A stretch of DNA of 64,000 bases from Escherichia coli (GTDB lineage Bacteria > Pseudomonadota > Gammaproteobacteria > Enterobacterales > Enterobacteriaceae). A model generated the notes under the pieces. That model was not told the DNA's origin and searched no databases. It was given only the letters and a program-made list of their open reading frames with translations. A program made the position numbers and the translations under genes. Positions 61,469 to 62,387 of this stretch are shown one piece after another (the first letter of the stretch is position 1; each line of letters begins with the position of its first letter). The stretch is from NCBI RefSeq assembly GCF_003790525.1, contig NZ_CP033635.1. One strand, given 5' to 3'.

Positions 61469-62387
61469 GAATCTTGACCTTTTTTGCTGTTATCGCCACT
61501 CCCTGCCGTGGAAGTCAGCTTAGAACAATGTACTCCCCCAGGACGGCGTTTTGAAGGTCTGCAGAATAAGATTTTGCCAGAGTGGAAGGCTTGATTGTGC
61601 TGTTAATAACTTAATAATGGCAAAATAATGAGGTGTATATGCTTAATAATTAATGTTATGTAGTGAATTGTTCTGATTCTTAATTGTGAGTGTGGTTTTT
61701 TTATCTGTAAGATAATTGTTTGAAAATGCCTCGTTTAAGAATTCACTAATGAATCGTGATGATGATATTTCCGCATTACGGAGAGTTTAACAGCGTGATG
61801 ATTTCCGAGGTGTCGTAATGGGTGCAAGGTGTGAAACTATTGTTAAGCGGGATTAATGAATGAGGATGATGCTAATTAATTATTATTTAATATTCAAAAA
61901 GGTTTTGTTGTGCTTATTAATAATAGAAGATTACTTTGCCTAACATAACATAACTTTGCATCAGATAATTCGCAATGACCCTTATAAATAAAAGGTTTTT
62001 GGGGTAAAATGCTCGCATAAATGACGGATCCCTGCTCTTGATGCCGCCTCACCATTGCTGTTTGTACGTGTTCGCGTATGACCAGCGATGCTGCACGAGA
62101 GTGGAACAAGGACTCACATTTACATTTATACAAACACGCGCATGTCATAAATACAAAAGAGTGAGTAACTTAATAGATATGCGATTCCTGAAGATATATT
62201 CTGTGATCTACTTCAGGCATTATAACGGAACAATGTGAGTCGCTTTTTTAGTGCAACTCATATGCATTTTTACTTTCGTCCGGGTTCCGGATGAAACTGC
62301 CAGGGAGGCACATTACAAATGGAATTGCTTGTTTGTGTGTGCACAGCATTAACCAGCTCAGTATGAGCCGCCAGTAAGTGATAATAT

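Follow-up and report, generated by a model that had tools for sequence, protein, structure and literature searches.

What occupies the unusually long AT-rich stretch between alaA and lrhA in Escherichia coli, and which of the two genes does it serve? The locus lies in a window of 64,000 nucleotides (the whole stretch of DNA analysed here; contig NZ_CP033635.1, assembly GCF_003790525.1), in which the divergent open reading frames (ORFs) of alaA (60251-61468, minus strand) and lrhA (62388-63326, plus strand) leave a gap at positions 61469-62387. A length of about 920 bp had been put forward for this gap in the original prediction, and the exact figure is 919 bp. The genes that bound it are the following.

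60251-61468, minus strand: alaA coding sequence, glutamate-pyruvate aminotransferase; left edge of the spacer, annotated as alaA in K-12 and SBF22.
62388-63326, plus strand: lrhA coding sequence, LysR-type regulator; right edge of the spacer, annotated as lrhA in K-12 and SBF22.

The gap is a real, conserved and functionally important control region that has already been described, and it is very probably shared by the two divergent genes and mostly devoted to lrhA. LrhA stands near the top of the hierarchy for motility, fimbriae and RpoS, and thus its control region sets swimming versus settling in E. coli, an importance that is already acknowledged and under study. Current understanding of the region is unchanged by the present analysis. 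What is added here is a base-level map in this strain, a family-wide conservation profile that separates the parts constrained in sequence from those constrained in length and composition only, and a pointer to a highly conserved hairpin on the alaA side.

The flanking proteins are almost the same as those of K-12 (405 of 405 residues identical for AlaA and 310 of 312 for LrhA), and the alaA-lrhA gap of K-12 MG1655 is likewise 919 bp long, with no annotation inside. The two gaps differ by 26 substitutions and no indels; 22 of the substitutions fall in 61547-61908 and none lies past 62186. With regard to composition, the gap has a GC content of 0.380 overall and of 0.302 at 61600-61960, as compared with 0.508 for the window, and only 0.7% of all 361-bp segments within the 64 kb are equally AT-rich. 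The AT-rich blocks that had been noticed at about 61600-61960 are therefore genuine.

Several other features of the window and of this comparison were observed. Five substitutions separate the strain from K-12 within the seven nucleotides 61645-61651 (A>T, T>C, A>T, T>G, T>C), a cluster that resembles a small replacement or inversion rather than independent point changes. Low GC is also found at about 2630-4470 and about 10750-11590 of the window, in both of which the 361-bp GC drops below 0.36; the window minimum (0.211, starting at 10928) is lower than any value in the alaA-lrhA gap.

Among complete E. coli genomes, the gap was found in 5425 of 5426, always on the chromosome, at 95-100% identity and with a median of one place per genome; its intact copies carried no annotated feature among the matches listed. 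About 42 of the 5425 genomes had no single match spanning 80% of the gap and 28 records had two places, which suggests that further insertions or deletions probably exist. One insertion was seen directly in SBF22, where a 768-bp IS1 is present at window positions 61905-61913, flanked by a 9-bp target duplication (TTGTTGTGC), in a gap that is otherwise 100% identical to that of the window (761-1458 of locus L086). Relative to the lrhA start the site is at -104 to -112, in the interval that separates the core promoter from the conserved island (both described below).

Beyond the species, a search with LrhA yielded 80 loci, nearly all named as Enterobacteriaceae, and alaA could be located in 78 of them. 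It is divergent and upstream of lrhA in all 78, and the gaps measure 764-1140 bp (mostly 920-1010 bp) with a GC content of 0.35-0.44. The expectation that the region is conserved backbone is thus borne out both by its presence in nearly all E. coli genomes and by gaps of similar size in the related loci. One of the loci, named as E. coli SCPM-O-B-8794, has a gap of 923 bp and an LrhA only 94.9% identical to that of the window (99.4% for K-12), and it may represent a divergent or cryptic Escherichia lineage and not a typical E. coli. The longest gap (1140 bp) belongs to Entomohabitans teleogrylli, with an insertion of about 130 nt inside an otherwise conserved lrhA leader end. The gap of an Enterobacter metagenome-assembled genome (MAG; L026) is only 764 bp, which may explain its shortest variable block (163 bp versus a median of 283 bp).

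It could be argued that the AT-rich block is not regulatory at all and is the remnant of horizontally acquired or mobile DNA. Its GC content of 0.30 is far under the window mean, no other part of the gap is as polymorphic within E. coli, and IS elements do insert in the gap. On the other hand, an AT-rich gap of similar length separates alaA and lrhA in 78 of 78 related loci, which implies that it is ancestral to the family. Moreover, a search for terminal repeats and other mobile-element signatures returned only short two-copy repeats, and the divergence of the block from K-12 is about neutral, not that of a replacement. We regard this explanation as barely credible.

To see which parts of the shared control region are maintained, a conservation profile was obtained from a MAFFT alignment of 79 sequences. 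Four blocks are conserved: 61469-61578, which adjoins alaA and holds its promoter and leader; 61839-61898, an island rich in AT whose coordinates relative to the lrhA start are -178 to -119; 61959-62018, which spans the core promoter of lrhA; and 62299-62387, the final ~90 nt of the leader of lrhA. Two intervening stretches, 61579-61838 and 62019-62298, show near-random identity between genera. The conserved blocks thus coincide with the promoters and with the end of the leader that is targeted by small RNAs (sRNAs).

Distances between the elements were also compared in the 79 species. The alaA ATG lies 88 +/- 1 bp from the alaA -35 element, the variable AT-rich block measures 283 +/- 4 bp (MAD; 51 of 79 within 5 bp), the island and the CTTATAAA promoter element are 139 +/- 1 bp apart (76 of 79 species deviate by no more than 5 bp), and the variable part of the leader is 310 +/- 10 bp long. 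As a control, the spacer between lrhA and nuoA was measured in 73 related species and came to 629 +/- 2 bp. A special status for the constant length of the upstream half, which is 536 bp and varies by no more than 6 bp in most species, was considered and rejected, because the lrhA-nuoA spacer is more constant. The fixed spacing is suggestive of a geometric requirement and gives only a hint of it, since the still more constant control spacer indicates that a general scarcity of indels may be responsible. The control spacer itself (63327-63956) is about 630 bp long and AT-rich (GC 0.34-0.42), and a strong terminator hairpin that looks bidirectional lies downstream of lrhA, at about 63362-63411, and was the source of weak Rfam matches there.

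On the alaA side, two elements were recognized in the first conserved block.

61527-61555, minus strand: predicted alaA sigma-70 promoter, -35 TTCAAA (61555 to 61550), 17-nt spacer, -10 TACATT (61532 to 61527).
61495-61519, minus strand: hairpin at the 5' end of the predicted alaA leader, GCU-G-ACUUCC [ACGGCA] GGGAGU-GGC.

Both promoter hexamers sit in invariant or nearly invariant columns (CTTCAAA and GAGTACATT), separated by a variable 17-nt spacer in the 79 species. This predicted promoter would imply transcription of alaA from near 61520 and a leader of about 52 nt. A different alaA promoter has been predicted before (TTAAGA-17-TATAAC; PMC3946193); in this window it reads at 61683 to 61655, is unconserved, and has CATAAC in place of TATAAC.

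The predicted alaA leader would begin with the hairpin. Its 16-mer CTTCCACGGCAGGGAG (61499-61514) is nearly fixed across species, with 11 bases identical in 79 of 79 sequences, and CC and GGCAGG form invariant columns in the alignment. Pairing is maintained in 88.5% of cells with 25 double-sided changes, as compared with 34-62% for slid controls. One pair is a U-G wobble in 39 of 77 sequences; such frequent U-G pairs make the hairpin compatible only with the sense strand of alaA. The window contains a single copy of the motif. The predicted leader as a whole, on the other hand, folded no better than shuffled sequences (z = +0.5).

The literature searched, in which searches for alaA with GcvB or Lrp yielded nothing useful, gave no account of this hairpin. 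We consider it a candidate mRNA-stabilizing or regulator-binding stem-loop: a protein or a small RNA might bind it, or it might stabilize the 5' end. That its loop and top stem (CUUCCACGGCAGGRAG) constitute an unrecognized cis-element controlling the expression of alanine aminotransferase is a tentative suggestion, which we hold to be possible and somewhat doubtful. The hairpin and the AT-rich spacer of fixed length could even be parts of one nucleoprotein assembly, for example with Lrp, that couples alaA and lrhA; Lrp has been reported as a controller of both genes.

Between the alaA promoter and the lrhA promoter, the AT-rich DNA consists of a drifting part and a conserved part.

61579-61838, no strand: variable AT-rich block, GC 0.34; length and composition kept, sequence drifting.
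61839-61898, no strand: conserved AT-rich island, GC 0.23, at -178 to -119, with ATTGTTAAG, ATTAATGA and AATTAATTATTATTTAATATT in this order.

In the variable block, identity to the base of the window is 0.23-0.49 per 20 nt, and over the interval used for the length comparison (61557-61841) the mean ungapped identity is 0.33 against a random expectation of 0.29. The block is 92.7% identical to K-12, whereas the other blocks reach 98-100% and the flanking genes 98.2%; judging from these identities, the divergence of 61579-61838 is at about the neutral rate. Identity in the island is 0.50-0.68 across genera, and the island is a candidate site for an upstream activator or an architectural protein. 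In addition, a 24-nt direct repeat (TAATGAAT..GATGATG) is present at 61747-61770 and at 61854-61877, the latter inside the island, with 79% identity between copies that are 107 bp apart; the copies may represent two factor sites or have arisen by chance in AT-rich DNA. When the conserved blocks were inspected by eye against the consensus sites of CpxR, IHF, CRP, Lrp and LysR-type regulators, none fitted well.

Downstream of the island lies the promoter of lrhA, followed by its leader.

61959-62016, plus strand: lrhA core promoter, with CATCAGATAATTCGCAAT (61959-61976), CTTATAAATA (61981-61990) and the -10 element TAAAAT (62005-62010).
62017-62387, plus strand: lrhA 5' untranslated region (UTR), 371 nt; target of UhpU, ArcZ and RprA and of McaS chimeras, and origin of Hfq-bound fragments.

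The start base is known from K-12, for which an "unusually long 371 nt" 5' UTR of lrhA has been reported (Melamed et al., 2023; PMC10578931). The first bases of primer SM079 from that study (ATAAATGACGG) match the window from 62017 onward, which places the start at A62017; for this strain it is carried over from K-12 and is thus probable by analogy. The long leader that had been proposed upstream of lrhA therefore exists. One point needs correction: the AT-rich blocks all lie upstream of 62017 and are DNA upstream of the promoter rather than leader, and the leader itself has a GC content of 0.42-0.45.

The -10 element TAAAAT ends 7 nt before the published start and is TAnnAT in 79 of 79 aligned sequences, most commonly TAAGAT; identity of the core promoter across genera is 0.60-0.69. 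A -35-like TTATAA is found at 61982-61987, inside CTTATAAATA. Our consensus scanner reported only a weaker CTAACA-18-GATAAT at this promoter and missed the true -10 because the -35 is weak. A second lrhA promoter may exist; nothing pointing to the lrhA start of the older, shorter annotation was seen in PMC4152368. The sole difference from K-12 in the core promoter is at 62016, position -1 of the published start (C here, G in K-12).

Complex transcriptional control, which the original prediction considered plausible for this region, agrees well with published work. Lrp activates lrhA directly, as judged by ChIP-seq (bioRxiv 10.1101/276808), and an OmpR ChIP signal is enriched at the lrhA-alaA spacer (PMC3945435). 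Sigma-70 SELEX peaks were reported in the "920 bp-long lrhA-alaA" spacer (PMC3946193), and binding of CpxR to the lrhA promoter in EHEC is mentioned in a review (PMC9387321). LrhA also binds its own promoter and regulates itself; the site is "not well defined" according to a citation in PMC5723134. These occupancies come from K-12 or EHEC and place Lrp, CpxR and OmpR somewhere within the spacer, at less than base resolution; for this strain they may be assumed by analogy. Insertions are known as well: expression of lrhA goes up when a transposon lands in the E. coli spacer, PigU is likewise increased by insertions in the orthologous spacer of Serratia, and a Keio strain acquired an IS5 at -137 of lrhA.

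With regard to post-transcriptional control, it has been reported in K-12 that three sRNAs (UhpU, ArcZ and RprA) lower the expression of a translational lrhA-lacZ fusion and that a single-base compensatory mutation proves direct pairing of UhpU (PMC10578931). In the same study, RIL-seq chimeras with the lrhA leader were most numerous for McaS, which yet had no effect on lrhA-lacZ. Pull-down with MS2-RprA enriched lrhA 744-fold by MAPS, and the lrhA mRNA decays (Lalaouna et al.). Binding by Hfq was found by Bilusic et al. (2014; PMC4152368), who obtained 150- and 350-nt RNAs first listed as "ig-lrhA-alaA" and could detect the 1.5-kb lrhA mRNA only in an hfq mutant; the short RNAs were judged to be fragments of the leader.

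These RNAs bear on the proposal of an unannotated small RNA in the gap, that is, an independent gene with its own promoter and terminator apart from the lrhA leader. Co-immunoprecipitation of the 150- and 350-nt RNAs with Hfq and the presence of several promoter-like hexamers in the AT-rich DNA would fit such a gene. However, the probe for the short RNAs also detects the 1.5-kb lrhA mRNA, promoter-like sites are as frequent as expected by chance (3 versus 3.5 in shuffles), and the scan for terminator-like sites returned a single one, inside alaA, and none within the gap. No match in the gap reached E = 1 in an Rfam scan, which covered 61200-64000 at a permissive E-value and down to E = 10 gave only a chance snoRNA match there. 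Furthermore, outside the leader the gap is conserved at promoter-like blocks only. An independent small RNA gene is therefore very unlikely, and the proposal stands only in the weak sense that Hfq-bound fragments of the leader exist.

We also considered whether the gap encodes a small protein or contains an upstream ORF with a regulatory role. The gap has 24 ORFs of at least 12 aa, and one of them (62291-62377, 28 codons) lies in the conserved leader end and stops 10 nt before the lrhA ATG. It is, however, kept in only 4 of 78 loci, its ATG is already absent in Citrobacter, and indels in the alignment break the frame. No small ORF of the gap is kept in more than 12 of the 78 loci, and none is annotated in K-12. 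The longest ORFs, of 84 aa (61894-62148, minus strand) and 66 aa (62038-62238, plus strand), have no counterpart in the 78 loci, in agreement with the earlier view that the region contains no convincing ORF. A coding function is thus most improbable.

We return to the leader as a site at which lrhA is controlled. It differs from K-12 by three substitutions and is identical from 62187 to the ATG. A 386-nt RNA starting at 62017 has a minimum free energy of -111.8 kcal/mol (z = -3.25 versus shuffles). The first ~280 nt cannot be aligned across genera, and RNAalifold returned an empty consensus structure for the MAFFT alignment of the last 118 nt. Folding of each species between conserved anchors was used in its place. 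The elements of the leader end are as follows.

62274-62296, plus strand: hairpin UUUCGUCCGG-GUU-CCGGAUGAAA, immediately 5' of the predicted ArcZ site.
62298-62308, plus strand: predicted ArcZ site UGCCAGGGAGG, at -90 to -80, complementary to ArcZ nt 66-76.
62337-62348, plus strand: predicted RprA/McaS site GUGUGCACAGCA, at -51 to -40, complementary to CUGUGUGUA.
62356-62368, plus strand: hairpin GCUCA-GUA-UGAGC, covarying (GGUCA/UGACC, CUC/GAG).
62367-62375, plus strand: UhpU pairing site ending in GCCGCCAGU, on the 3' flank of the preceding hairpin in Escherichia.

The first hairpin has compensatory stems in Escherichia, Citrobacter and Salmonella (CACUUG/CAAGUG, ACCUGG/CCAGGU and CAUUCG/CGGAUG), and most other genera have an unrelated hairpin in its place. 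In other genera an outer GGG/CCC helix is added to the hairpin at 62356-62368. Both hairpins may have roles in regulation of the leader.

Among the sRNA sites, only that of UhpU is anchored by experiment. The lrhA-M1 gBlock of PMC10578931, compared with the wild type (GAGCCGCCAGT), carries a C to G change at window position C62372 (-16); this mutation abolishes repression by UhpU and a compensatory change restores it. The best complementarity to UhpU spans 62361-62375, with a score no better than for shuffled targets. The exact ArcZ and RprA sites are predictions from complementarities of 11 nt. The ArcZ site, in the conserved part of the leader, is the best ungapped complementarity to processed ArcZ, and 52% of shuffled targets score as well. 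The sequence CUGUGUGUA is common to RprA (nt 62-72) and McaS (nt 45-56), its match to the leader is no better than in shuffles, and CACAGC within the site is conserved across genera. Duplex energies for full-length sRNAs against the leader gave long looped artefacts, no better than shuffles, and were discarded. Lelliottia sp. V86_10 lacks the segment that carries the predicted ArcZ and RprA sites.

The behaviour of McaS raises an additional possibility, namely that the leader or its Hfq-bound fragments also sponge sRNAs in trans, McaS especially, on top of the role in cis. McaS forms the most chimeras with the leader without a change of lrhA-lacZ, and inhibition of McaS was suggested by the authors (PMC10578931); the 150- and 350-nt fragments accumulate on Hfq (PMC4152368), and the McaS/RprA-complementary site GUGUGCACAGCA is conserved. 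However, leader RNA was "virtually undetectable" in total RNA (PMC4152368), which argues against stoichiometric titration, and the complementarity to McaS is no better than chance. We consider such a sponge unlikely.

Based on these observations, the shared control region is very probably organized as follows. The ~110 bp adjoining alaA would contain its conserved promoter and a short leader starting with the hairpin. The ~380 bp of AT-rich DNA (61579-61958) would be the upstream regulatory region of lrhA, consisting of the 260-bp block and of the island at its fixed distance (139 bp), and action of Lrp, CpxR, OmpR and LrhA on it has been reported. Transcription of lrhA is then started by a sigma-70 promoter at A62017. 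The 371-nt leader serves as the site of post-transcriptional control, in which UhpU, ArcZ and RprA, all Hfq-dependent, pair in the last ~90 nt near the ribosome-binding site. Pairing would lower the synthesis of LrhA, with RprA and Hfq also lowering the mRNA level, and less LrhA would allow more flagellar expression because LrhA represses flhDC. For this strain, all of the regulation is presumed from K-12, EHEC and relatives.

Several known systems can be compared with this region. The csgD-csgB (755 bp) and nanC-fimB (1458 bp) spacers are also AT-rich, and they were grouped with lrhA-alaA by Shimada et al. (2014; PMC3946193) as long spacers belonging to stress-response genes and holding many transcription-factor sites; lrhA-alaA differs from them in having far fewer mapped sites, and no H-NS mark is listed for it in the table of that study. 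The Serratia alaA-pigU and Pantoea lrhA promoter regions (PMC10810281, PMC5723134) likewise belong to a divergent pair with a long spacer. In Serratia, insertions raise the expression of the LrhA orthologue. In Pantoea, a promoter fragment of 903 bp was used and the regulator binds its own promoter, although autoregulation is negative there and was reported as positive in E. coli. These likenesses are drawn from published descriptions, and the conservation of the blocks was assessed within the Enterobacteriaceae.

The closest counterpart is of course the K-12 spacer, which is the same locus with the same length of 919 bp, start base, -10 element, flanking genes and UhpU contact (C-16). It differs by the 26 substitutions, of which 61547-61908 holds 22 and position -1 of the start site holds one.

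With respect to the leader, rpoS, csgD and flhDC are global regulators with long 5' UTRs where several Hfq-dependent sRNAs meet close to the ribosome-binding site; rpoS is a target of ArcZ, csgD is a target of McaS, and RprA acts on both. The lrhA leader differs from these hubs in that its first ~280 nt are not conserved in sequence, and from rpoS in particular in that rpoS is activated by the opening of an inhibitory stem, whereas the tested sRNAs all repress lrhA. It resembles them in its length and shares some of their sRNAs.
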